Counted from the first letter of the stretch, positions 8,609-59,567 are shown. The stretch is 64,000 nucleotides of DNA from an uncultured Bdellovibrionales bacterium (GCA_964612055.1 CAZTBI010000001.1:71957-135956), one strand, 5' to 3'. The notes: generated by a model from the letters alone, not told the origin. A program made the numbers and translations.

Positions 8609-9505
8609 TTAGAAAAGTTTTTCTGCTTCTTTAGCTTCGGTAATCCAATGAATCTTGGCGCCCATTTTTTCGAAACGGCGCAGCCAGGTGATTTGGCGCT
8701 TGGCGTAGTGGCGGATTTCAAAGTTCAGACGTTCTTTCATTTCTTCTTTTGAAATTTTTCCTTGGAGAAAAAGAGCGATGTATTTGTATTCTAGGCCGAA
8801 GCTTTCGAGTTTTTTGAAGCTCAGTCCGCTGGCACGTAAGTTCTTTACTTCAGCGAGCATGCCTTTTTTGAGACGCTTCTCTAGCCGCGTCTCGATGTTC
8901 TTATTGAGTGTTTCTTTTGGCGGATTGAGAGCGATAATGAGGAAAGATTCCCGATCTTTGATCTTCGGTTTTTGGACGGGAGGGACTTTACCAAGTGCAG
9001 CGACGATCTCCAGGGCTCGGATGAGACGAATCTTATTCTTGGGATCAATATTTTTGGCACGAGTAGAATCTTTCTTTTTCAGTTGCGCGAAGAGCTCTTC
9101 AGCTGAGAGTTTATCAAGCTTCTTCCGGAGTGCCATATCAGGTTTTACGGCTGGAAAAGTATTTTCTTCGAGGAGGGCTTGAATCCAAAATCCAGTACCA
9201 CCGCAGATAATCGGGTTTTTCTGGCGCTTTTTGATATCGTTTATAATTTTCTTAGCATCGCGGACGAAATGAGTGACGTTGTAATTTCGCTTTGGACTGC
9301 CAACGTCGAGAAGGTGATGTTTGGCCAGTTTTTGTTCAGCCTTGGTCACTTTGCCAGTACCGATATCCATGCCACGGTAGACTTGTCGGCTATCGGCCGA
9401 GATGATTTCGCCATTGTATTTTTGAGCGAGAGCAATGGCTAAATCCGACTTGCCAGAAGCTGTCGGTCCCATAATGACAAGAGTTTTGTGGAATGATTTT
9501 CGCAT
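8609..9505 (-). CDS. miaA: tRNA dimethylallyltransferase MiaA
   Basis: LVIMGPTASGKSDLAIALAQKYNGEIISADSRQVYRGMDIGTGK is the MiaA P-loop and signature. Confidence 0.92.
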   Translation of the reverse strand: MRKSFHKTLVIMGPTASGKSDLAIALAQKYNGEIISADSRQVYRGMDIGTGKVTKAEQKLAKHHLLDVGSPKRNYNVTHFVRDAKKIINDIKKRQKNPIICGGTGFWIQALLEENTFPAVKPDMALRKKLDKLSAEELFAQLKKKDSTRAKNIDPKNKIRLIRALEIVAALGKVPPVQKPKIKDRESFLIIALNPPKETLNKNIETRLEKRLKKGMLAEVKNLRASGLSFKKLESFGLEYKYIALFLQGKISKEEMKERLNFEIRHYAKRQITWLRRFEKMGAKIHWITEAKEAEKLF

Positions 9506-9561
9506 CGCACTAGTATGTCATATTTCTCTTTTTTGGCAAAGAATTTATAAATTTCTGCATC

Positions 9562-9695
9562 AGCAAGCAACCTTTCAAAGTACCGCTTGCTTGCCCTGGC
9601 GTGGCAAGCTGCTCTACGCTTCCACCCGCACTCTTTTTCCTTCGGAAAAAACCATGCCCGTTCGGGTTCCAGGGTTACTTTGGAAGATTCTTGCT
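9562..9695 (+). repeat. structured intergenic repeat R1, copy 1 (candidate ncRNA)
   Basis: About 135 nt. It is about 90% identical outside the variable P3 hairpin to 49893..50037. It forms three hairpins inside a closing helix, with compensatory differences between copies. Confidence 0.6.
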
Positions 9696-9738
9696 GAAAG
9701 AAATTTGGCGTCTCAAGTGAGCTCCTTCGCTCTTTCAT

Positions 9739-12700
9739 TTAAGAAATTCTCTCAACACCATCAATCGTTTTAATCTGAGCAAGGTTGTCTTCGGTGGGGG
9801 CGACAGAAAAAGTGGTCTCGATAGTGGTGCTGGCAAGCTTCACGGAAACTTTCTTGGTGCCTGTTGGGAGAGTTTTGAGGAGCTTCGAGAGAGTCTCGAT
9901 GGTTTTAGTTGGTTCGCTTCCGCCGATAGTGATCATGAGCTTTTCTTTACTTTCTGCAGAAGGAACTGGCTCTGCAGCGCGAGGACGTTCCAGTTTGGTA
10001 CGAGTAGCTTCGGCGCGAGCGAAGTGTTGCAATGTATCAGGTGAGATTTTTTCTACTCCTTCAGCCAGACAACGTAGCTGACCTTCTTTGAAAGAGACTC
10101 GAGCATCGACGATGACGATCTCTCCAGGAATCCAAGAATCACCAGTCCGTTCAGCTGCTTTGCCAAAAACCAGCATCTCGACGCGACCCGTCATATCTTC
10201 GAGACCAACAAAGTACATGTTGCTTCCAGTTTTGGTGAGTACTTTGCGCACGGTCGTGATGACGCCGCCGAGGCGAACCCGAGCACCATCTCCTTGTTTC
10301 TCGAGGCTTCCGAGTGGAGTAGCAGTGCGGTTGAAGTAGGCTTGGTATTCGCTTGTTGGATGGTCGCTGACATAGAGACCGAGGAGTTCTTTTTCCCAAA
10401 CGAGACGGGTTTTCTTGTCAGCTTTAGCGGATGGAGCGAACTTTATCTTGCTGGCGGGCATAGCCATGCTGCCGAAGAGACTATCGGCATGAGTTTCTGA
10501 TATAGTTCTCAAATTTTTACCATGACGCAAGATAGCGTCGAGATTATCGAGGAGCATCTGGCGTTCACCGAAATCCTCCAGAGCACCGACCTTGATCAGG
10601 GCTTCGACGGATTTCCTGTTGAGATCTTTGGTCTGTACGCGTTCCACGAAGTCTTCGAGAGTCACATATTTGCCACCACGTTTCCGCTCGGCGACGATTT
10701 CGTTGGTCACGACGGAACCGACATTCTTTACGGCATTTAGCCCGAAGCGTAACCGTTCCGTCCCGTCATCATCGATGATCACTGAAAATTCCTCGAAACT
10801 TTCATTGACGGAAGGTGGCATGACTTCCAGGCCCATTTCCCGAGCCTCGGTCACTTCGATGGCAATACGATCAATGTTGTCTTGGTCGGACGTCAGGAGG
10901 GCGGCCATGAACTCTGTCGGGTAGTGCGCTTTCAAATAGGCAGTCTGATAACCGATCAAGGCGTAACAGGCAGCATGAGCGCGGTTGAAACCATAACGAG
11001 CGAACGGTTCGATAAAGTCCCAGACCTCTTCAGCCTGCTTCCGGGTGATATCGGGATTGCGGACAGCGCCACTGATAAATTTCTCGCGTTGCTCATCGAG
11101 AAGTTCCTTGATCTTCTTACCCACCGCCTTACGGAGGATGTCGGCCTCGGCATAGGAGAAGCCGGCGAACTTTCGGGCGATTTCGAGTACCTGGTCTTGG
11201 GTGACGATGACACCGTAGGTATTCTGCAAGATCGGCTCGAGGAGTGGATGAAGGTACGTCACCTTCTTCCGCCCGTGCTTGCTTTCGATGAAGTCGGGAA
11301 TAGCATCCATCGGACCAGGACGGTAGAGGGCGACCATCGCCAAGATGTCTTCGAAGACGGTTGGTTTCAACTGTTTCAAATAGCGTTTCATGCCTGAACT
11401 TTCCAACTGGAAGACTCCGGTAGTGTGAGCTTCCTGGAGCAGCTTGTACGAAGCAGTGTCGTCGAGTGGCAGGTGATCGAGAATAGCGGAAACAGCGGTG
11501 TTGTTCGGATCAATGCCAAGTTTTCCACACAGTTCCGGCATTTTCTTCAGGGCCTTGACGATGCGGAGGGTGTTTTGGATGATAGTGAGGTTTTTCAATC
11601 CCAAGAAGTCCATCTTGAGCAATCCAATCTTTTCGACAGCGTTTGATTTGGTTGATGCAGCGTACTGTGTCACGACCCCTTCTCGACTTCCGGAAACGCG
11701 TTGGAGAGGAGTGTATTCGGTGACTGGATCTTTGGTGATGACTACGCCGCAAGCATGCATCGAGGCATGACGGACCAAGCCTTCGAGTTTGAGAGCGGTA
11801 TCGATAAGTTTTTTGGCATCGGCATTTTCGCTGTACCATTGTTTGAATTCCGGTACTTCTTCGAGCGCTTTGGCGATCGAGGTGAACATCGGGATCATCT
11901 TTGATGTTTTGTCGCAGAAGTCGTAAGGGAGTCCGAGGGCGCGGCCGACATCACGCACAGCAGCTCGTGCAGCCATAGTTCCAAAGGTAATGATCTGTGC
12001 CACACGATCATTTCCGTATTTTTCCCGGACATAGTTCAAGACATCATCACGACGGTCATCGGCAAAGTCCATGTCGATATCTGGCATGGAGACACGCTCT
12101 GGGTTCAGGAAGCGTTCAAAAATGAGATTGAATGCTATCGGATCAACGTTGGTGATTCTGGTGAGGTAGGCAACGAACGATCCGGCAGCTGAACCGCGTC
12201 CTGGGCCGACGATGACCCCGTTATCCTTGGCCCAGTTGGTAAAGTCCTGGACGATCAAGAAGTATGAGGCAAAGCCCATCTTCTCGATAACGGAGAGCTC
12301 ATAGTCCATGCGCTCCCGCTCCACGGCTGTGGCCTCACGATCAGGATAGCGTTTTTTGAGACCGATTTCACAGAGTTCGCGCAGGGCGCTATCAGCTGTC
12401 ACGCCGGGAGGCAAGGGAAATTCTGGCAGATGATTTTCTCCCATTTGGATGGTGACGTTGCAGACATCGGCAATCTTCCCAGTATTCGTTATAGCCTCCG
12501 GGATGTCTTTGAAGATCTCAGCCATTTCTTCTCCTGAACGGAGTGAGAGGTCGAACTCTTTCATGCTGAAGCGTTCGTGATCCGTCACCTTCTTGTTGTC
12601 GCGGATACAAAGGAGAATATCTTGGGTTTCGGCGTGCTCTTTTTTGACATAGTGAACGTCGACAGCGGCGACCACGGGGATACCGGTTTCTTGACTGATC

Positions 12701-13275
12701 TGCACCAATCCCTGATTTACCGCAATCTGATTTTCGTTTTCAGTGTGTGGACCGAGTTCGAGGTAAAAATTATCCTTGCCAAAGATGTCCTGATACTCCA
12801 AGGCAATCGCTTTGGCACGTTCGTAGTTACCATAGACGATTTCGCTTGGAATTTCTCCCTGGAGTGACCCAGAAAGGGCGATCAGTCCGTCGTGGTATTG
12901 GCGCAGAAGTTTTTTGTCGGCTCGAGCCTTGTAGTAGAAGCCGTCGAGCTGAGCGACAGAGATGATCTTCATCAGGTTTTTGTAACCCCGATCATTTTTG
13001 GCGAGGAGCACGAGTTGGGTGCGTCTGCGATCTTCGCTGGTATTGTTCTTGCTGTAGAGGTCTTTGCAGACGTAGATTTCGGTTCCGATGATTGCTTTGA
13101 TACCGTATTCTTTGGCTTTGCTATAGAACTCCACGGCACCGTACATGGCGGAAGTGTCGGTCAGCGCGATGGACGTCATCCCGTACTCTTTGGCCTGCGC
13201 CAAGAGTTCCTCGATTTTCGGGAGAGCAGTGAGGAGGCTGTAGTGGGAGTGAACGTGGAGGTGAGTGAACGGCAT
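9739..13275 (-). CDS. dnaE: DNA polymerase III alpha subunit
   Basis: 1178 aa. N-terminal PHP domain (HLHVHSHYSLL), polymerase core, OB fold. Uninterrupted ORF. Confidence 0.95.
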   Translation of the reverse strand: MPFTHLHVHSHYSLLTALPKIEELLAQAKEYGMTSIALTDTSAMYGAVEFYSKAKEYGIKAIIGTEIYVCKDLYSKNNTSEDRRRTQLVLLAKNDRGYKNLMKIISVAQLDGFYYKARADKKLLRQYHDGLIALSGSLQGEIPSEIVYGNYERAKAIALEYQDIFGKDNFYLELGPHTENENQIAVNQGLVQISQETGIPVVAAVDVHYVKKEHAETQDILLCIRDNKKVTDHERFSMKEFDLSLRSGEEMAEIFKDIPEAITNTGKIADVCNVTIQMGENHLPEFPLPPGVTADSALRELCEIGLKKRYPDREATAVERERMDYELSVIEKMGFASYFLIVQDFTNWAKDNGVIVGPGRGSAAGSFVAYLTRITNVDPIAFNLIFERFLNPERVSMPDIDMDFADDRRDDVLNYVREKYGNDRVAQIITFGTMAARAAVRDVGRALGLPYDFCDKTSKMIPMFTSIAKALEEVPEFKQWYSENADAKKLIDTALKLEGLVRHASMHACGVVITKDPVTEYTPLQRVSGSREGVVTQYAASTKSNAVEKIGLLKMDFLGLKNLTIIQNTLRIVKALKKMPELCGKLGIDPNNTAVSAILDHLPLDDTASYKLLQEAHTTGVFQLESSGMKRYLKQLKPTVFEDILAMVALYRPGPMDAIPDFIESKHGRKKVTYLHPLLEPILQNTYGVIVTQDQVLEIARKFAGFSYAEADILRKAVGKKIKELLDEQREKFISGAVRNPDITRKQAEEVWDFIEPFARYGFNRAHAACYALIGYQTAYLKAHYPTEFMAALLTSDQDNIDRIAIEVTEAREMGLEVMPPSVNESFEEFSVIIDDDGTERLRFGLNAVKNVGSVVTNEIVAERKRGGKYVTLEDFVERVQTKDLNRKSVEALIKVGALEDFGERQMLLDNLDAILRHGKNLRTISETHADSLFGSMAMPASKIKFAPSAKADKKTRLVWEKELLGLYVSDHPTSEYQAYFNRTATPLGSLEKQGDGARVRLGGVITTVRKVLTKTGSNMYFVGLEDMTGRVEMLVFGKAAERTGDSWIPGEIVIVDARVSFKEGQLRCLAEGVEKISPDTLQHFARAEATRTKLERPRAAEPVPSAESKEKLMITIGGSEPTKTIETLSKLLKTLPTGTKKVSVKLASTTIETTFSVAPTEDNLAQIKTIDGVERIS

Positions 13276-13425
13276 AATTCAGAAATCAAGCAAACAAAAA
13301 ACCAGACTTATAAAAGCTGGAGGTGCGAAGGGTGTAGTTTTTCATAGCGTTGTATTCCCTCATAGCCCAGGATATACCATTGGGTTCTGCAGAGAAGTTA
13401 TCTGTGCATAGTATATAATGAAGCT

Positions 13426-14130
13426 ATGCAAACGACAACCTTTGAAAAAGAGCGGGAAATTATCTCAAGAGGAGAGGTTTTTGTTGTTGGGGTAGATGAG
13501 GCGGGACGAGGGCCTTTGTGCGGGCCAGTGGTCGCAGCGGCAGTGTATTATAAGCGTCCGGACTTTATCATTCCTCCGGAACTTGAAAAAGACTTTACTC
13601 TGATTCGTGATTCGAAGAAGCTTTCTGAAAAGCAACGAGAAAAAATATTTTCTCTAATCCAAGAACACTTTCATGTCGGGGTTGGTATTGTGAATGCCGA
13701 AACCATTGATCGGGTGAATATTTTGCAGGCAACATTTCTGGCTATGAAGACGGCTCTATCTGATTTATTGCGTTCTATACCGGAAGCACGCGGGAAAGAA
13801 TATCTTTTAGTTGATGGGAATCAGCTTCTCCCGAGTTTCTCTGGGGCGCAGGAAGCGGTAGTATCGGGTGACAGTACGGTGAAGTCTATTGCGGCTGCGT
13901 CGATCATAGCCAAGGTGACGCGAGACCGGTTGATTACGGAATATGACCAGGAGTATCCGCAGTATGGCTTTGCTCGACATAAGGGCTACGGCACCAAGGA
14001 GCATATGGATTCGCTTCGCAAGTATGGCCCGAGTCCAATCCATCGTATGTCTTTTAAACCGGTACTTCTTTCTATTCCCGAGAATGCCAACAAGCGGTTC
14101 TCAAGTGTCTTGAAACCGAAGAAGAAGTAA
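13426..14130 (+). CDS. rnhB: ribonuclease HII
   Basis: GVDEAGRGPLCGPVVAAAV...LVDGN...GDSTVKSIAAASIIAKVTRD gives the catalytic DEDD motifs of RNase HII. Confidence 0.9.
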   Translation: MQTTTFEKEREIISRGEVFVVGVDEAGRGPLCGPVVAAAVYYKRPDFIIPPELEKDFTLIRDSKKLSEKQREKIFSLIQEHFHVGVGIVNAETIDRVNILQATFLAMKTALSDLLRSIPEARGKEYLLVDGNQLLPSFSGAQEAVVSGDSTVKSIAAASIIAKVTRDRLITEYDQEYPQYGFARHKGYGTKEHMDSLRKYGPSPIHRMSFKPVLLSIPENANKRFSSVLKPKKK

Positions 14131-14131
14131 G

Positions 14132-14271
14132 AACTCCGTGTTCCCAGAAATTCCCTTGTGCCACAAAAACACCAGCATGTTTTTGTTACTCTTCACCGAA
14201 ACTTTTCAGAAGACTGAAAAGACCATGCTTTCGGCTCCAGGCGTGCCCAAGGGAACTCCGGGAACACGGAG
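14132..14271 (+). other. structured intergenic element with 25-nt long-range inverted repeat (possible rpmF leader / small RNA)
   Basis: 5' arm aactccgtgttcccagaaattcccttg pairs with 3' arm caagggaactccgggaacacggag. Internal hairpins caaaaac/gtttttg and cttttcag/ctgaaaag. Confidence 0.4.
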
Positions 14272-14352
14272 CGCAGAGCCTGAGTCTTGCCAAAAGGGAA
14301 ATCCCGTGTTACATTGAGAGCAACGTAAATTTTCAGAGGAACCGTTACTGTT

Positions 14353-14559
14353 ATGGCTCTACCAAAGCAAAGACATACAAGGCATCGTCGTGATCGTGCT
14401 CGTAAGCAGTACGATGTAAAGTTGGTGAATACCAAAGAGTGTCCGAAGTGTAAGGCTCCTGTTTTGGGACACCGTGCATGCCCAGCTTGTGGTTTTTACA
14501 AAGGAAAAGAAGTGGTCAAAATGGCTCCGAAACTGGAAACATCCAAAAAGTCTGCCTAG
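14353..14559 (+). CDS. rpmF: 50S ribosomal protein L32
   Basis: MALPKQRHTRHRRDRARKQYD...CPKCKAPVLGHRACPACGFYKGKEV is L32 with a CxxC..CxxC zinc ribbon. GAGGA Shine-Dalgarno sits upstream. Confidence 0.92.
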   Translation: MALPKQRHTRHRRDRARKQYDVKLVNTKECPKCKAPVLGHRACPACGFYKGKEVVKMAPKLETSKKSA

Positions 14560-14666
14560 AAACCCCTCGATCCCTGCCCGCCTCTGGAGGGTTTGCTCAA
14601 TTATGTTTATAATAGAGCTATACAGAGTAGGGTAGTAATTTTTGGGTTTCTAGCAGCAAAACAAAA

Positions 14667-15288: not shown

Positions 15289-15987
15289 ATGAATAGAGAG
15301 ATTGATATCGAAAAACTGAAGAAAGATTTGGGGATTGAAGTGCGTCAGATTGCTTTGTTTCAAGAAGCGTTGACTCACCGTTCCTACCTCAATGAACACA
15401 AGGGGTACCAGTATCCTCACAATGAACGCCTGGAATTTTTGGGTGATGCGGTATTGGAATTGGTGGTGACAGAAAATTTGTTTCACAATTACGAGAATCC
15501 GGAAGGGGAGCTCACGAGTTTTCGAGCCGCCTTGGTTAATGGCGATATGCTGGCCAAGATCGGTCGTGATTTGGGGATGCAAGATTTCCTGCTTATGAGT
15601 CGGGGAGAGGCCAAGGATACCGGTCGGGCTCGGGGGTATTTGGTGGCTAACGCGGTAGAAGCGATCATCGGAGCACTCTACCTTGATCAGGGCTACGATG
15701 CAGCCAAAGACTTTATTTTAAAATACGTCATGAGTCATTTGCCGGAGGTCTTTGAACAGGGACTTCATACGGATGCCAAAAGTCGTTTTCAGGAGTTGGC
15801 TCAGGAAAAAATGGGCATTACTCCGGGGTATCGAGTCATCAAGGAGTGGGGACCGGATCACGACCGACATTTCATTGCCGGAGTTTATTTGGGCGAAGAG
15901 AAGATCGCCGAAGGAGAGGGCGCTTCCAAGCAGGAATCACAACGCGAAGCCGCTAAACAAGCTCTTATCGCCAAAGGCTGGCAGTAA
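15289..15987 (+). CDS. rnc: ribonuclease III
   Basis: RNase III signature ERLEFLGDAVLELVV plus a C-terminal dsRBD. Confidence 0.93.
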   Translation: MNREIDIEKLKKDLGIEVRQIALFQEALTHRSYLNEHKGYQYPHNERLEFLGDAVLELVVTENLFHNYENPEGELTSFRAALVNGDMLAKIGRDLGMQDFLLMSRGEAKDTGRARGYLVANAVEAIIGALYLDQGYDAAKDFILKYVMSHLPEVFEQGLHTDAKSRFQELAQEKMGITPGYRVIKEWGPDHDRHFIAGVYLGEEKIAEGEGASKQESQREAAKQALIAKGWQ

Positions 15988-37490: not shown

Positions 37491-37562
37491 CTGGGGAGGA
37501 AGGGATCGAACCTTCGCATGGAGGCTTCAAAGGCCCCTGCCTTACCGCTTGGCTACTCCCCA
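37491..37562 (-). tRNA. tRNA-Gln (anticodon UUG)
   Basis: 72-nt cloverleaf on the minus strand (TGGGGAGTAGCCAAGCGGTAAGGCAGGGGCCTTTGAAGCCTCCATGCGAAGGTTCGATCCCTTCCTCCCCAG). U1-A72 pair, anticodon loop CUUUGAA, T-loop GGTTCGATCC. CCA is not encoded. Confidence 0.9.
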
Positions 37563-42385: not shown

Positions 42386-42404
42386 GGCTTGTTATGTGTG
42401 ACGA

Positions 42405-42552
42405 GGGTCAACCCCGCACTATTTTGGCGCTAAGAATTTTTTAAAAAAAGTCAGACACGAAAGTGTTCTGACATGGTCCATCGATATAACCACTCTTTTG
42501 GTTTCAGAATGCCTTCGGCATTTGCGCCAAGAGAGTGCGGGGTCAACGCACC
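42405..42552 (+). promoter_or_regulatory. structured 5' leader: ~150-nt long-range inverted repeat enclosing two hairpins (one UUCG-capped)
   Basis: Arms gaccccgcact..ttggcgc (42408..42430) and gcgccaa..agtgcggggtc (42524..42546). Internal hairpins gtcagacacgaaagtgttctgac and aatgcc-TTCG-ggcatt. The element ends 10 nt before the ATG at 42562. Confidence 0.45.
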
Positions 42553-42561
42553 TCTTTTGCC

Positions 42562-43870: not shown

Positions 43871-46048
43871 ATGCTTGATCAGAACGAAATTACTTTTTTT
43901 GCCAAGACGAACTTCCGCAATCAGGAGCGGGTTTTTGGTATCAAAACAGATGATCGACGCCGTCACATGTATGTGATCGGAAAGACGGGTATGGGAAAAA
44001 CCAACCTCTTGGAAAACCTAGCTATCCAGGATATTCAAAAAGGTCACGGTATTGCCTTTATCGATCCGCACGGTGATACGGCAGAAAAACTGATCAAAGC
44101 CATTCCGAGCAACCGTATCAATGATGTTATTTATTTCAACCCGGCTGATCAGGATTTTCCTATCGCGTTCAATGTGATGGAGAAGGTTGATCCAGAGTAT
44201 CGCCACCTTGTCGCTTCCGGTTTGGTCGGCGTGTTCAAAAAAATCTGGGCGGACTCCTGGGGACCACGTCTCGAATATATCTTGCGCAATGCTATTTTGG
44301 GACTGCTGGAATATCCGGGCAGTACGCTTCTCGGGGTGACGCGTATTTTGGTGGACAAATCTTATCGTGAACGCGTGGTAGAAAAAATCACCGACCCGGT
44401 GGTGCGTTCTTTCTGGGTGGATGAATTCTCAAAGTGGGATCCCCGCGTGCTTCAGGAGGTGATCTCGCCGATCCAGAACAAGGTGGGGCAGTTTCTTTCG
44501 AGCGCCCTTATCAGAAATATCGTTGGTCAGACAGTATCATCTTTCGATGTGCGCAAGATCATGGATGAACGCAAGATCCTCATCATGAACCTTTCCAAAG
44601 GTCGCCTCGGTGAAGATAATAGCGCCCTTCTGGGAGCCATGATGATTACCAAGATACAGCTCGCCGCTATGGGTCGGGTGGACATTCCTGAAGAGACCCG
44701 CGCTGACTTTTATCTCTACGTTGATGAATTCCAGAACTTTGCCACGGAGTCGTTTGCGAATATCCTTTCTGAAGCTCGTAAGTATCACTTGAACCTCATC
44801 CTGGCTAATCAGTACGTGACCCAGATTGATGAAGAGGTGCGTGATGCTATTTTCGGAAACGCAGGCTCTATCATCTCATTTCGAGTGGGCGCTATGGACG
44901 CCGAATTTTTGGAAAAGGAATTCGAGCCGGTTTTTATGATGAATGATATCGTCAATTTGGCGAAGTATCAGATTTACCTCAAGCTCATGATTGATGGTAT
45001 CGCGGGAGATGCTTTCAGTGCTACGACGCTGCCACCAATCAAACTTGAGACCGCTGCTAATGAGCAGAAGATTATTGATGCTTCTCGAGAACGTTATACG
45101 ACGAAGAAAGAAGAGGTAGAGGAGAAAATTCGTCGTTGGAGCGGCATGTTGTCAGCCGAAGAGCGTCAAGCCCTCGTTCAGCCAAGAAGCCCTGCTCCGA
45201 TTCCGGCAGCTCGACCAAAGGAACCTGTCAGGTCTCAAGCTCCCGCTCCGGCGCGTTCACAATCCGTGCCAGCTGCTCCGAGGGTAGAGCGGTCCGGAGA
45301 AGGTCGTTACGCCGCTCCCAAGGCCCCTGTCGCTCCTTCTATTCCGAAAGCTCCAGCCCCGGTAGTGTCTAAAGTTGCACCAGTCCAGAAGGAGGGGGCG
45401 TATTCTCCGAAACAAGCATCAGCCGTCTTGCAATCTGCTCTGACGCAGAAGCAAGCTCCAACTCCCGTCGCTCCGAAGCCAGATTTTGTGCCGCCCATGG
45501 CACCGAAGAAGGAACCGATGATTTCACTCGATGAATTTGAAAAGGAAGAGGAGAGGAGTCAGCTTCGGCTAGAAGAAAAAGAAGAGCCAGGGGATCAGGG
45601 AATAGTAGGGGGTGTCGAAACAGAAGCTTTGGCAGAGGTGCCGGAGAAGAAGCTCTACCAAGCACAGTGCGCCACCTGCGGCACTGATATTGAGGTGCCT
45701 TTTGAGCCAGATGGGAGTAGGCCAACTTTCTGCAAGGACTGTCTGCGTGATTATCAACGAGCGACCGCCAAGGCCCGCAATGAGATAGAGAAAAACCAAG
45801 CCACGAGAGCGGCGATGGGAAATGGAGGGGGCATGCCGCGGCAGAATGCTCCAGAACGGCGCGATATTCCTCGAGACCGCGTGGTTTCTCACCAATCCTA
45901 TGCTTCATCTGAACGGCCGCTTTCTTTGGCTCAGGTGCAACATATTGAACCCAAGAAATTCAAGGCCTTGAGAAAGCGACCAGAACTCAATCTCTCTGAG
46001 GTGCGAGCACTGATTGATGATACTCGAAGAACTCAAGGGGGCGCGTAG
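43871..46048 (+). CDS. VirD4/TraG/TraD-like (T4 coupling protein family) P-loop ATPase with Pro/Ala-rich linker and C-terminal CxxC...CxxC zinc ribbon
   Basis: Walker A VIGKTGMGKTNLL followed by the T4CP-typical IAFIDPHGD. Walker B is FYLYVDEFQNF. The C-terminus has QCATCGTDIEVPFEPDGSRPTFCKDCL. Confidence 0.55.
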   Translation: MLDQNEITFFAKTNFRNQERVFGIKTDDRRRHMYVIGKTGMGKTNLLENLAIQDIQKGHGIAFIDPHGDTAEKLIKAIPSNRINDVIYFNPADQDFPIAFNVMEKVDPEYRHLVASGLVGVFKKIWADSWGPRLEYILRNAILGLLEYPGSTLLGVTRILVDKSYRERVVEKITDPVVRSFWVDEFSKWDPRVLQEVISPIQNKVGQFLSSALIRNIVGQTVSSFDVRKIMDERKILIMNLSKGRLGEDNSALLGAMMITKIQLAAMGRVDIPEETRADFYLYVDEFQNFATESFANILSEARKYHLNLILANQYVTQIDEEVRDAIFGNAGSIISFRVGAMDAEFLEKEFEPVFMMNDIVNLAKYQIYLKLMIDGIAGDAFSATTLPPIKLETAANEQKIIDASRERYTTKKEEVEEKIRRWSGMLSAEERQALVQPRSPAPIPAARPKEPVRSQAPAPARSQSVPAAPRVERSGEGRYAAPKAPVAPSIPKAPAPVVSKVAPVQKEGAYSPKQASAVLQSALTQKQAPTPVAPKPDFVPPMAPKKEPMISLDEFEKEEERSQLRLEEKEEPGDQGIVGGVETEALAEVPEKKLYQAQCATCGTDIEVPFEPDGSRPTFCKDCLRDYQRATAKARNEIEKNQATRAAMGNGGGMPRQNAPERRDIPRDRVVSHQSYASSERPLSLAQVQHIEPKKFKALRKRPELNLSEVRALIDDTRRTQGGA

Positions 46049-49016: not shown

Positions 49017-49772
49017 ATGATTTTTCACCTTACTGTTTTTGTCTGGAGCTTAGCCTTTCTTGCTGGCCTTGAGGCGGTAGCACTCAATCCCATCTTTGCC
49101 TCTTGGAGTTGGTATCTTCTTTCTATTGGCGTGCTGGTCGCGATATCGCTCGGTGCCATTCGTCGTTTGACGGAGAATTCTTCAGATGCCTTTATTCCGA
49201 TTCTGCTTTCTCTCGCTTCGCCGACGCTCCTCTCGCTCGTCGATCATCCTGGTGAGCGGCAAGTGTTTGTTTTCCTAAGTGCGGTGATGTATTATTTCGC
49301 GCTCCTCGGGAACTACCGTCTCCACCATGCTCCTGCTGACAAAACGGGTGAGGCCTTTCTGAACTCAGCTGCGATGGCGGCCATGTTCTTCTTTTATGCC
49401 GGTCTGTACGGATTTTTTCTCAACTTCTCCTTTCCACTTTGGGGATTGATGCTTCTGTACTTTATTGGTACGGCACTGACCAGTTACGAGACGTTTATTA
49501 CCGTCGACAAGAAAGAACGCAAAAGAGTGATTCTCTACAGTGCGCTTCTCGGCTTTATCATGGGCGAGATGGTGCTCGTGATGAGTCTTTGGCCATTTGG
49601 GTACCTGACAACAGGGGCTCTCGGGACGATTCTTTTTTTCATCGCGTGGGATATTTCCTTTGATGCTTTTCGAGAGACGTTGTCATTGAAAAAGGCGATG
49701 ATTCGCATCCTATTTCTCATGATACTCGTCCTCCTTCTCCTTATCAGTTCTCCGTGGCGGATATTGGTGTAG
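49017..49772 (+). CDS. hypothetical polytopic membrane protein
   Basis: 251 aa with 6-7 predicted TM helices. No family recognised. Confidence 0.5.
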   Translation: MIFHLTVFVWSLAFLAGLEAVALNPIFASWSWYLLSIGVLVAISLGAIRRLTENSSDAFIPILLSLASPTLLSLVDHPGERQVFVFLSAVMYYFALLGNYRLHHAPADKTGEAFLNSAAMAAMFFFYAGLYGFFLNFSFPLWGLMLLYFIGTALTSYETFITVDKKERKRVILYSALLGFIMGEMVLVMSLWPFGYLTTGALGTILFFIAWDISFDAFRETLSLKKAMIRILFLMILVLLLLISSPWRILV

Positions 49773-49892
49773 AGCGTATTCTTGTTGTTCGTGACGGTTT
49801 TGCGATAGAGTTTCTTGGGAGTGAAAAATTACATACTTTTGGGGAGTTGTTTCCCAAAAATACCTTCCCTTTTCTTTTTAAGGAATTCCTAA

Positions 49893-50037
49893 ACCAAGCA
49901 ACCTCCCAAAGTACCGCTTGCTTGCCCCGGCGTGGCAAGCTGCTCTACGCTTCCACCCGCACTCTTTTTCTTCTGCCAGCTGGCAGAAGAAAAAACCATG
50001 CCCGTGCGGGCTCCAGAGTTACTTTGGAAGATTCTTG
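49893..50037 (+). repeat. structured intergenic repeat R1, copy 2
   Basis: Near-identical to 9562..9695 except that the P3 hairpin is extended (tttttcttctgcc-agc-tggcagaagaaaaa versus tttttcc-TTCG-ggaaaaa), with stem-preserving changes. Confidence 0.6.
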
Positions 50038-50091
50038 TTTAGGGATTCTCGGTATGCGCAGCGTTTTCGAAAATATTTTCATTTTCTTCAG

Positions 50092-50203
50092 CCGTGTCCT
50101 GTCGGTCACATTTGTCATGAGTGTACCGGTAACAGTCGAGCGTAATGAGTGGCTTCCGTCAGATAGCTCCCTGTTCGGCGAAGCGATTGAGAAATGTTCG
50201 ATA
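50092..50203 (+). repeat. intergenic repeat R2, copy 1
   Basis: About 112 nt. About 85% identical to the reverse complement of 59381..59497, with a shared core gtcggtNacatttgtNatgagtgNaccggtaacagtcgagcgtaa...agctccctgttcggc...gaaatgttcga. Confidence 0.55.
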
Positions 50204-50314
50204 GGACTAAAGGGGGAGAAAAGGGAACATATTTTTGAAAACGTACATACCATTTTTTGTTCAGAGGCATTTCTTGCCGAAAATGGTGAAATATGATAGA
50301 AGTAAAGCACTGTT

Positions 50315-51499
50315 ATGGCATCATTTTTCATCAAAAAAGCCCTTCTTTTCAGTTTTTTAGCCATCATCGTGCTCATCTTGGGCGGGGTGGGGGGTGTTTT
50401 TTTTGAGCGTTCACTGGTGCCGCGTTTGGCTGCTACAGAATACTTTGGGAACTGGGATATCTTCAAGAAAGCCGCAGAGCACGTGACGGTCATCAACAAG
50501 ACTGAGCAGATCGTGATCCGTGAAGATGATACCGTTGAAAGAATCGTTTCTCAGCCAGCAACGGCAGTGGTGAATATCGTGGCTTTGCCTGGGGTAAAGG
50601 GTGCGAAGGGGAGTACGGCCGCTTTGGGCGCAGCCGCAGAGACGGTCGTGACGACTACGGGTGTGCTGCTGACGAATGACGGTCTGGTAGCGACCTACAG
50701 CGAGCTTCCTTTTGATACTGAAAAGACAGAGTATTCCATCTTGCTTTACGATGGCTCGATCCACCAAGCGACGTTTGCTGGTCGAGACAAGTTGACGAAT
50801 CTTTCATTTTTCCGAGTGAGCGATGCTTCCAATACGCCGGCCATTGCTTTTGCAAATTCCGATGACGCACGCGTAGGAAGAAAGCTGATTGCGATCGGGA
50901 ATACATTTGCGGAATATCAGAATCGTTTGGCCGTAGGTATCCTTTCCAATATCAATCGCATCTTCAATCTTTCTGGAAAAACGGTTGCTTCCTCAGAAAA
51001 GTGGGAAGGAGTCTTTGAGATGGATCTGGCTAGACCAGAATCGTTCGTCGGTGGTCCGGTGATCGGTTTCAATGGGGAGATGGTTGGTATCGTAGGAACA
51101 CTCGCCATCAACAATACACTCCAGTCGTTTGTCATTCCATCGAATGTGGTGCGCGATGCTCTTAATCGTCTGATCGCTGGGACATTGGAGAGGCGGCCGA
51201 TTCTTGGTGCGTACTATCTCTCGATTACGAAAGCTTTGGCACTGGGTCAAGGTCTCGCTCGTGATCGTGGGGCGCTTGTCTATTCGCGCTCTGGTTCCAC
51301 TGGTCTTGCCCTGATCGCTGATTCACCGGCCATGAAGGCTGGGATTCTGGCAGGGGATATTATTATCTCGGTAAACGGTACCGAAGTGAATCTCGACAAT
51401 CCGCTCCCAGAGATACTGTCACGCTTCAATGTTGGCGACACGCTTTCTCTGGTCATTCTCCGCAACAATGAGGAGCGGACCATCGAAGTGAAACTGTAA
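50315..51499 (+). CDS. HtrA-like pseudo-protease with PDZ domain (catalytic His and Ser substituted)
   Basis: Trypsin-fold/PDZ architecture aligns with the neighbouring HtrA. The His motif reads TNDGLV and the Ser motif reads ESFVGGPV (no GNSGGP). Confidence 0.7.
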   Translation: MASFFIKKALLFSFLAIIVLILGGVGGVFFERSLVPRLAATEYFGNWDIFKKAAEHVTVINKTEQIVIREDDTVERIVSQPATAVVNIVALPGVKGAKGSTAALGAAAETVVTTTGVLLTNDGLVATYSELPFDTEKTEYSILLYDGSIHQATFAGRDKLTNLSFFRVSDASNTPAIAFANSDDARVGRKLIAIGNTFAEYQNRLAVGILSNINRIFNLSGKTVASSEKWEGVFEMDLARPESFVGGPVIGFNGEMVGIVGTLAINNTLQSFVIPSNVVRDALNRLIAGTLERRPILGAYYLSITKALALGQGLARDRGALVYSRSGSTGLALIADSPAMKAGILAGDIIISVNGTEVNLDNPLPEILSRFNVGDTLSLVILRNNEERTIEVKL

Positions 51500-59325: not shown

Positions 59326-59380
59326 GTGTTGTTAGGCCTGACTTCGGAGAAGATTTAATTTTTCTGACCACTTTCGTTTC

Positions 59381-59497
59381 GTCGAACATTTCTGACTCGT
59401 TCTGCCGAACAGGGAGCTAGCCGCTCGAAACCATCGCGTTACGCTCGACTGTTACCGGTTCACTCATCACAAATGTTACCGACGGCACACGGGATGC
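59381..59497 (-). repeat. intergenic repeat R2, copy 2 (inverted)
   Basis: Its reverse complement aligns along its length with 50092..50203. It lies between convergent genes. Confidence 0.55.
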
Positions 59498-59567
59498 AGA
59501 AAAATCAAACCTTTCCTTCGCTATACTCGGGTATTTCGGCCGTATTAGATTTTCTATGCGGCCTTGA

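Follow-up and report, generated by a model that had tools for sequence, protein, structure and literature searches.

What is the element of some 130 nt that lies between miaA and dnaE in this genome: a gene for a small structured RNA, or an interspersed repeat that can move? A preliminary description of the 64,000-nt stretch of DNA analysed here (the window) had placed a candidate novel non-coding RNA at 9562-9695 and a second copy of it downstream. The evidence set out below points, with moderate confidence, to a lineage-specific, non-coding, hairpin-forming interspersed repeat family of Moranbacteria, termed R1, which resembles MITEs, REPINs and ERICs and has a core of 130-145 nt (about 160-175 nt with its flanks). 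From the pattern of conservation an RNA function is possible, and the label of a novel ncRNA is premature.

The R1 family in the window and in related genomes

The element lies where it had been placed; its conserved core, bounded by CAAG and CTTG, occupies 9564-9693, and additional paired flanks extend it to 9549-9706 (Table 1). Four bases were missing from the sequence as first quoted, the true reading being ...gtaccGCTTgcttgcc.... The reported position between the 5′ end of miaA (start at 9505) and the 3′ end of dnaE (stop at 9739) was correct, and as both genes are on the minus strand, the strand folded initially is antisense to both. The second copy was found on the same strand at 49895-50037, between a DUF5656 gene (49017-49772, +) and a gene for an HtrA-like protease (50315-51499, +), and is 93% identical to copy 1 over 130 aligned columns, a swapped central hairpin excepted.

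The two copies have the same orientation and lie 40.3 kb from each other, as direct repeats, as would be expected of the attL and attR sites of an integrated 40-kb element; chance similarity or a decaying segmental duplication might also be considered. We regard all three as highly improbable. The 20-mers of R1, which have a chance expectation of 0.00 in the window, are present there at both copies only, as is the 20-mer of the terminal inverted repeat (TIR); copies also occur in other genomes and at other sites, and the element is constrained and not decaying (see below). A pair of att sites was further rejected on the grounds that the interval consists of conserved housekeeping genes, which are syntenic in relatives without the repeats.

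The best DnaE and ProRS homologues carry the names Candidatus Moranbacteria or Moraniibacteriota and, judged by these names, the host genome is that of a Candidatus Moranbacteria (CPR/Patescibacteria). It is compact, with intergenic gaps mostly below 100 nt. CPR genomes are about 1 Mb in size, tightly packed and generally held to be poor in repeats and mobile DNA.

That related genomes should hold more copies had been anticipated, and five were identified. A metagenome scan with a 20-mer of the left arm gave two distinct diverged copies, at loci L008 and L010 (77-81% identical to copy 1; L007 is the L010 locus in a different sample). Among DnaE homologue loci, L011 holds an orthologous copy from a strain with 98% DnaE identity, and L014, from a species with 80% DnaE identity, has in its dnaE-miaA spacer a copy that shares 90% identity with copy 1; the L017 copy, which follows rnhB, is decayed. 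An alignment and a de novo covariance model (CM) were built from these five sequences and the two window copies. About 318 kb of Moranbacteria loci searched with this seven-sequence model yielded no additional copy. Genome contigs scanned with GCTCTACGCTTCCACCCGCA gave five matches, two of which (L002, L003) are chance matches without an element and three of which (L004-L006, Betaproteobacteria and Arthrobacter records) contain no R1 by nhmmer. Viral contigs searched with a gapped TIR pattern, and plasmids and phages searched by blastn with R1, gave no match. The copy number appears low, with two copies and one diverged relative in 64 kb and, elsewhere, 0-1 per locus of 8-23 kb.

The diverged relative, R1b, was the best non-self match of the covariance model in the window with filters off (14144-14261, 17.9 bits, E ~0.03), and is located between the rnhB stop and the rpmF promoter. 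Its layout is that of R1 and every helix sequence is different: the closing helix is CTCCGTGTTCCC.../...GGGAACACGGAG, the side hairpin ACAAAAA/TTTTTGT, the inner helix CCGAAA/TTTCGG and the apical hairpin CTTTTCAG/CTGAAAAG. Alignment to the model brought the closing helix, P1, the inner P2, P3, ACCAUGC and CCAGG into register, the unpaired motifs in register being ACTC, ACCATGC and CTCCAGG.

Table 1 Features of the R1 and R2 families and their neighbours (window coordinates unless a locus is named)
Feature	Position	Strand	Evidence or remark
miaA	8609-9505	-	neighbour of R1 copy 1
miaA promoter-like site TTGCCA-16-CATACT	9512-9539	-	promoter scan; just outside R1 copy 1
R1 copy 1, outer helix, left arm AAATTTCTGCATCAG	9549-9563	+	pairs with 9694-9706; MFE fold
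R1 copy 1, conserved core CAAG...CTTG, 130 nt	9564-9693	+	direct repeat; nhmmer 140.8 bits; CM 150.9 bits
P1 hairpin GCTTGCC-CTGGCGT-GGCAAGC	9589-9609	+	98% of cells paired
P3 apical hairpin TTTTTCC-TTC-GGAAAAA	9634-9650	+	86% of cells paired; double-sided changes at three pairs
Conserved unpaired motif AACCATGCC(C)	9651-9659	+	ACCRTGC in all R1 copies and R1b
R1 copy 1, outer helix, right arm CTGAAAGAAATTT	9694-9706	+	kept in orthologous L011 and L014
dnaE	9739-13275	-	neighbour of R1 copy 1
R1b, strongly diverged relative	14134-14271	+	inverted repeats; CM alignment; MFE fold; between rnhB stop and rpmF promoter
R1 copy 2, outer helix, left arm GGAATTCCTAAAC	49882-49894	+	duplex of -13.9 kcal/mol with 50038-50050; 0 of 1000 shuffles as good
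R1 copy 2, conserved core, 143 nt	49895-50037	+	direct repeat; CM 135.3 bits
R1 copy 2, outer helix, right arm TTTAGGGATTCTC	50038-50050	+	duplex energy; MFE fold
R2 copy a, second repeat family	50078-50222	+	inverted repeats, nhmmer, consensus fold; 40 nt downstream of R1 copy 2
R2 copy b	59361-59505	-	inverted repeats, nhmmer, consensus fold
R2, further copies	L008 1863-2007; L011 13562-13708		
R1 copy 2 flanks, left/right			GGAATTCCTAAAC / TTTAGGGATTC
L008 flanks, left/right			AGAAACTCCCCAAT / CTTGGAAGTTTCT
L010 flanks, left/right			GAGTTGCCCACAG / CTGGAGCAACTC
L017 flanks, left/right			CTGGAATTTTTCTG / CAGAAAATCCAG

Fold of the core and of its flanks

R1 is an imperfect palindrome composed of a long closing helix, a side hairpin in the left arm (P1) and an apical hairpin (P3). 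It had been described as a closing helix with three hairpins, and the closing helix, P1 and P3 were all supported. The third hairpin, P4 (GCCC-GTTC-GGGT), is not a structure of the family: it is 75% paired, has no double-sided changes and is broken in four of the seven sequences (L008, L010, L014 and L017), while the change between the window copies that had been read as compensatory is a one-sided U-to-C (G.U to G-C) together with a change in the loop. The closing helix has about double the length first stated, with 17-19 conserved bp (P0) and flanks of 12-15 bp. In the seven-sequence alignment, 94% of the P0 cells are paired. The terminal inverted repeats that form it, a classical MITE feature, are CAAGCAACCTTTCAAAGTA paired with TACTTTGGAAGATTCTTG, and 16-17 of the 17 model pairs are standard in six of the seven copies.

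Double-sided changes were found at two P1 pairs in L014 and L017 (GTTCGCC/GGCGAAC), at three pairs of P3 (Table 1) and in part of a long-range helix. The replacement of P3 in copy 2 by a longer perfect stem was borne out: a 13-bp stem, TTTTTCTTCTGCC-AGCT-GGCAGAAGAAAAA, stands there in place of the copy 1 hairpin. A better fit than P4 is a candidate long-range helix enclosing P3, termed P2. Its arms are CCCGCAC/GTGCGGG in copies of the window type and TTGAAGTC/GACTTCAA in those of the metagenome type, and R1b has CCGAAA/TTTCGG. When the family is placed in one register, P2 is only 67% paired, and RNAalifold picked a different register. Over the family, double-sided changes affect 10 pairs, compared with 6.3 in shuffles, and pairing falls to 38-55% when the registers of the helices are slid.

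Beside these variable helices, the unpaired motifs CTCTAC, ACTC, ACCATGCC and CTCCAGG are conserved. The combination ACTC...ACCRTGC is common to R1b and every R1 copy; about 318 kb contained it in only three other places, two of them inside called genes. Conserved unpaired motifs next to variable helices are typical of functional RNAs and count against a mobile repeat. They would suit small structured RNAs transcribed on their own, whether protein-binding or trans-acting: a three-way-junction core would be the functional part, a variable terminal stem would close it, and the patchy distribution would reflect gene gain and loss. The architecture kept by R1b with all helix sequences different argues in the same direction, as do the folding energies of the R1 copies relative to dinucleotide shuffles (z = -3.3 and -4.9). 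We nevertheless consider such RNAs an unlikely explanation of R1, given the following observations on strand, expression signals and flanks.

The reverse complements of the R1 copies fold at least as well, with z-scores (-2.3 and -4.8) about equal to those of the plus strand and minus-strand folds somewhat more stable in every case. Watson-Crick pairs make up nearly all of the helices, and on the plus strand of the six intact copies A.C is at least as frequent as G.U. Since A.C pairs match or exceed G.U pairs on the plus strand and the minus-strand folds are the more stable, nothing in pairing or fold stability identifies either strand as the RNA.

No Rfam 15 family was matched by R1 at gathering thresholds or at E up to 10, so that the sequence is indeed new to Rfam, as had been supposed and as an undescribed RNA would be; sub-threshold matches of both copies reached at most 17 bits against thresholds of 50-80, and the only gathering-level match in the window is a tRNA at 37491-37562. 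A consensus scan found no promoter-like site upstream of the window copies on their own strand, CPR promoter rules being poorly known, and no terminator was found. Beyond the paired flanks the non-orthologous loci are unrelated, and hence share no expression signal there. The orientation of R1 relative to flanking transcription is mixed: it is that of the upstream gene in copy 2, L010, L017 and R1b, the opposite at dnaE-miaA, and ambiguous in L008.

Several other roles were rejected. A coding function is contradicted by a 13-nt indel between the window copies, by stops in all six frames in L008 and by overlapping ORFs without a Pfam match. ATG- or GTG-initiated peptides stop after 9-39 codons and differ in sequence; no open reading frame is conserved that would point to a small protein or a type I toxin locus. 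A putative outward minus-strand promoter within P1 and the TIR (TTGCCA-19-TACTTT) loses its -35 in the L014/L017 variant. The template and variable repeats of a DGR are excluded, because the changes that separate the copies show no specificity for adenine and neither copy is coding. As for an intrinsic terminator, P3 has a T-run before it and an A-run after it on both strands with no GC-rich stem and U-tract, and the sole match of a terminator scanner in R1 was a weak stem of 3 GC pairs in the right arm. The -35 hexamer TTGCCA of the miaA promoter-like site also precedes rpmF and, as TTGCCG, the HtrA-like gene; these three promoters are at 9512-9539 (-), 14290-14318 (+) and ~50277-50305 (+), and each repeat lies just upstream of such a hexamer.

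Homology among non-orthologous R1 copies stops exactly at CAAG...CTTG. At every locus, the 12-15 nt outside these ends are complementary to each other, and their sequence differs among non-orthologous loci (Table 1). Within-locus outer duplexes have energies of -9.3 to -16 kcal/mol, compared with averages of about -4 to -6.5 for shuffles (copy 1: -9.3 against a mean of -4.3), and the fraction of shuffles that match them is 0.000 to 0.05 per locus. When flanks of different loci were combined, most duplexes were weaker than -8, with a few at -9.1 and -9.6 kcal/mol. The sisters L014 and L017 have the outer helix TTTTCTG/CAGAAAA in common. No direct target-site duplication was found, the flanks being inverted complements (TCAG/CTGA, CCTAAA(C)/TTTAGG, CCAA(T)/(C)TTGG, CAG/CTG). 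That copies 93% identical in their cores should have unrelated outer stems is not producible by point mutation, which is a further argument against independent RNA genes.

Insertion into pre-existing palindromes was rejected as the origin of the outer helix, the empty rnhB-rpmF site in L014 and L015 having 3-10 nt from the stop codon to the -35 hexamer and no palindrome; the outer helix either comes along with the insert or arises at insertion. Template switching at a hairpin could produce it, and could also produce seemingly compensatory changes without selection. R1 copy 1 and R2 copy b have the 10-mer TTTCTGCATC in common (9552-9561; 59493-59502, -), at the base of the outer stem in the former and of the closing stem in the latter. 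No other occurrence of it was found in about 318 kb from related genomes, perhaps a hint of different apical modules carried on one stem.

Occupied and empty sites

R1 copies are found at non-homologous intergenic sites, and the equivalent spacers of sister species are empty and only 3-52 nt long. The DUF5656/HtrA-like spacer has 542 nt in the window, compared with 52 nt in a species with 90% ProRS identity and 42 nt in one with 88%. In both of these species the stop codon is conserved, as is the promoter region after it, with nothing between the two. The dnaE-miaA spacer contains R1 in the window, L011 and L014 only; none is present in L013 (41 nt), L016 (158 nt), L017 (115 nt), L015, L025 or L026. 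In a DnaE tree, the window and L011 group with L015 and with L013 and L016, and L014 groups with L017, so that the species without R1 at dnaE-miaA are closer kin of one or other occupied lineage. The P1 variant of L014 recurs in its sister L017, together with a similar outer helix, in a different spacer 4.5 kb away: L014 has R1 at dnaE-miaA and an empty rnhB-rpmF spacer, and L017 the reverse. Judged from these two loci, the pattern looks like relocation of R1. Small size, absence of an ORF, copies at non-homologous sites and filled or empty sites among relatives are all features of classical MITEs.

Logan short-read contigs end inside such repeats (L001 at ...GCTTCCACCC, L012 in R2, L025 in a repeat fragment), which implies several near-identical copies per genome that fragment the assemblies. 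A transposase was not found among 37 distinct window ORFs scanned with Pfam; nor did these 64 kb contain a RAYT gene or a partner IS with ends matching R1. The lack of a transposase in the 64 kb, the lack of a target-site duplication and the apparently low copy number weigh against a mobile repeat.

Every R1 copy comes after a stop codon and ahead of the next promoter or terminator. This placement would be expected of a cis-acting element maintained by the host whatever its origin, such as a transcription insulator or terminator, an mRNA 3′-end stabiliser or an RNase III processing site; the closing duplex of about 30 bp and the RNase III gene in the window (15289-15987) fit the same role. We judge it improbable as an account of the family. 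The 3-52 nt spacers of sister species show the element to be dispensable there, its orientation varies by locus, and canonical stem-plus-U-tract terminators are used elsewhere in the window with none in R1; in L010, R1 is followed by a normal terminator.

Other repeats share these spacers. The R2 family is a non-coding rod-like hairpin of ~150-190 nt with ~46 predicted pairs and no Rfam match. It has G.U pairs that all four copies share, and within it a GGTAACA...TGTTCG module is repeated. At three loci R2 follows downstream of R1 after 34-55 nt, and it is also found alone. When L011 13538-13937 is compared with 9694-9741 of the window, a 167-nt R2 insertion directly follows the dnaE stop in L011 and is absent from the window; this presence/absence polymorphism between near-identical strains has T-run microhomology at its junction and reflects an insertion or a deletion. 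The spacer after an ABC-F gene is a hotspot (window 59326-59567; L018 8399-8861; L021 16163-16598; L024 16226-16278), containing R2 in the window, a 93-aa membrane-like ORF in the 98% strain, a different 107-aa ORF in the 90% species and 53 nt in the 88% species.

A third intergenic motif (L018 8795-8870 and L014 13660-13735), AAGTGAGTGAA.TGAAA...CCGAGC.AGTGC.GGT.AAATCAGG.TGAAT.CCTGTTATTTT, directly abuts R1 in L014 and is absent from the window. Two further intergenic inverted-repeat hairpins lie at 42400-42554 (34-nt arms, 76% complementarity) and 14556-14653 (31-nt arms, 71% complementarity). The sequence ATACCTTCCCTTTTCTT (49860-49885), just upstream of R1 copy 2, matches the pyrimidine arm of R2 (L011 13553) and also L025 1-27, a Logan contig end that follows rnhB in another species; the 542-nt DUF5656/HtrA-like spacer looks like a mosaic of repeat fragments.

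The dnaE-miaA spacer tolerates varied insertions: in L015 (6851-7231) and L025 (4485-5315) it contains unrelated ORFs of 126 aa and 276 aa, respectively, without Pfam matches. In L014, the dnaE call ends about 60 codons early with recognisable C-terminal coding sequence beyond (13348-13500), probably owing to a frameshift or an assembly error. A homologue of TraG/VirD4-like coupling proteins with DUF87 and a treble-clef zinc finger is encoded at 43871-46048 (+), and a 48%-identical paralogue (L010 11-730) ends 30 nt upstream of R1 in L010.

Constraint, possible roles and known systems

The preliminary description had held that R1 is not a decaying duplicate, and comparison with the 98% strain (L011) agrees. 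Only 3 of 158 positions of the element with its outer helix differ, two in the P1 loop and one that converts a P2 mismatch into a pair, compared with identities of 86.5% (dnaE) and 82.8% (miaA) at four-fold sites, that is, 13.5-17% divergence (75/554 four-fold differences; Fisher p 3e-5 to 9e-5, ~1e-4). The dnaE-miaA copy is thus about six times more conserved than four-fold sites between strains, which would accord both with independent RNA genes and with a host-kept cis-acting element. R1b is less conserved between strains, with 7 differences in 141 nt and a 19-nt indel. With respect to L014, R1 is 90% identical at a distance where four-fold sites are saturated (33-37% identity); given the tree, this likeness may reflect recent spread instead of long-term selection. 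The 98%-strain comparison indicates either real constraint or homogenisation of R1. As neutral decay is expected of a selfish copy, the conservation points to host-level function, gene conversion or recent transfer. Conservation together with structure-preserving variation had been taken as the hallmark of a functional RNA; the constraint and the double-sided changes are real, and an RNA gene is not singled out by them.

The case for a mobile repeat rests on the sharp ends of homology, the filled and empty sites, the apparent relocation, the clustering with R2, the assembly breaks, the symmetric Watson-Crick helices and the absent expression signals, while strain-level constraint and the conserved unpaired motifs keep a functional RNA under consideration. 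Compensatory change is compatible with a mobile repeat, being common in the hairpins of REPINs (PMC3116915). We propose that R1 spreads as DNA, through an enzyme supplied in trans or through template switching or recombination between hairpins. The folded hairpin, as single-stranded DNA or RNA, would be the recognised form, and such recognition would explain why pairing is preserved despite sequence change. Transcribed together with its neighbours after insertion, R1 would offer RNase III a natural substrate in its closing duplex of about 30 bp, or the duplex would act as a 3′ stabiliser; this may explain the constraint between strains.

More tentatively, R1 and R1b could be an undescribed class of functional CPR RNAs that multiplies like a mobile element, an idea to which we give only limited credence. 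Such RNAs would be built on a three-way junction with the conserved unpaired motifs CUCUAC, ACUC, ACCAUGCC and CUCCAGG, and apical modules might be exchanged between hairpins with locus-specific basal stems; one hint of such an exchange is the 10-mer in the stems of both R1 copy 1 (at 9549) and R2 copy b (at 59502).

Whether mobile repeat or RNA, such elements are prominent here: at least seven of the 11 inspected intergenic gaps of about 150 nt or more contain a long-hairpin element (R1, R1b, R2 or two others), and these break metagenome assemblies and vary between strains with 98% DnaE identity. Defining the R1 family by a covariance model should improve the assembly and annotation of these uncultured bacteria and provide strain-level markers. 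Since an inserted copy is clearly constrained, R1 also lends itself to the question of whether small palindromic repeats are parasitic or have been recruited as RNA elements.

Full-text literature searches found nothing relevant on repeats or ncRNAs of this kind in CPR or Moranbacteria. R1 was compared with systems known from other bacteria. ERIC (IRU) sequences of enterobacteria are imperfect palindromes of ~127 nt in transcribed intergenic regions, found in both orientations, highly conserved, and at sites that depend on the species. R1 resembles them in its size, its long-hairpin imperfect palindrome, its intergenic location, where the flanking genes belong to one transcription unit or to adjacent ones, the lack of an ORF, the occurrence in both orientations, and its high cross-species sequence conservation with patchy site occupancy. 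It differs in having an asymmetric side hairpin (P1), locus-specific paired flanks and a CPR host, and in sequence: blastn (word size 11) of R1 against 5,426 complete E. coli genomes gave no match.

Correia/NEMIS elements and other bacterial MITEs have terminal inverted repeats and a direct duplication of TA or another target, and Correia transcripts are cut by RNase III. The likeness of R1 to these lies in TIRs of ~17-19 bp, a length of 100-160 nt, the absence of an ORF, presence or absence between related genomes and the long duplex formed on transcription; unlike them, R1 has no direct target duplication and instead has flanks of 12-15 nt complementary to each other. To the structured RNAs of Rfam 15, R1 is similar in its multi-helix architecture and conserved junction sequences, although no family matches.

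REPINs are mobile, show compensatory changes in their hairpins and form clusters by insertion next to each other (PMC3116915). R1 shares with REPINs and REP-BIMEs the nature of non-autonomous, extragenic hairpin repeats, compensatory changes, clustering and the lack of target-site duplication (PMC3116915). A REPIN, however, consists of two inverted copies of a short REP palindrome with a spacer, whereas the GC-rich palindrome of R1 (P1) is present on the left arm only and has no counterpart on the right; the copy number of R1 is also apparently much lower, and no RAYT accompanies it in the 64 kb. R1 therefore departs in one defining feature each from ERIC, REPIN and Correia-type MITE, which are nonetheless its closest analogues.
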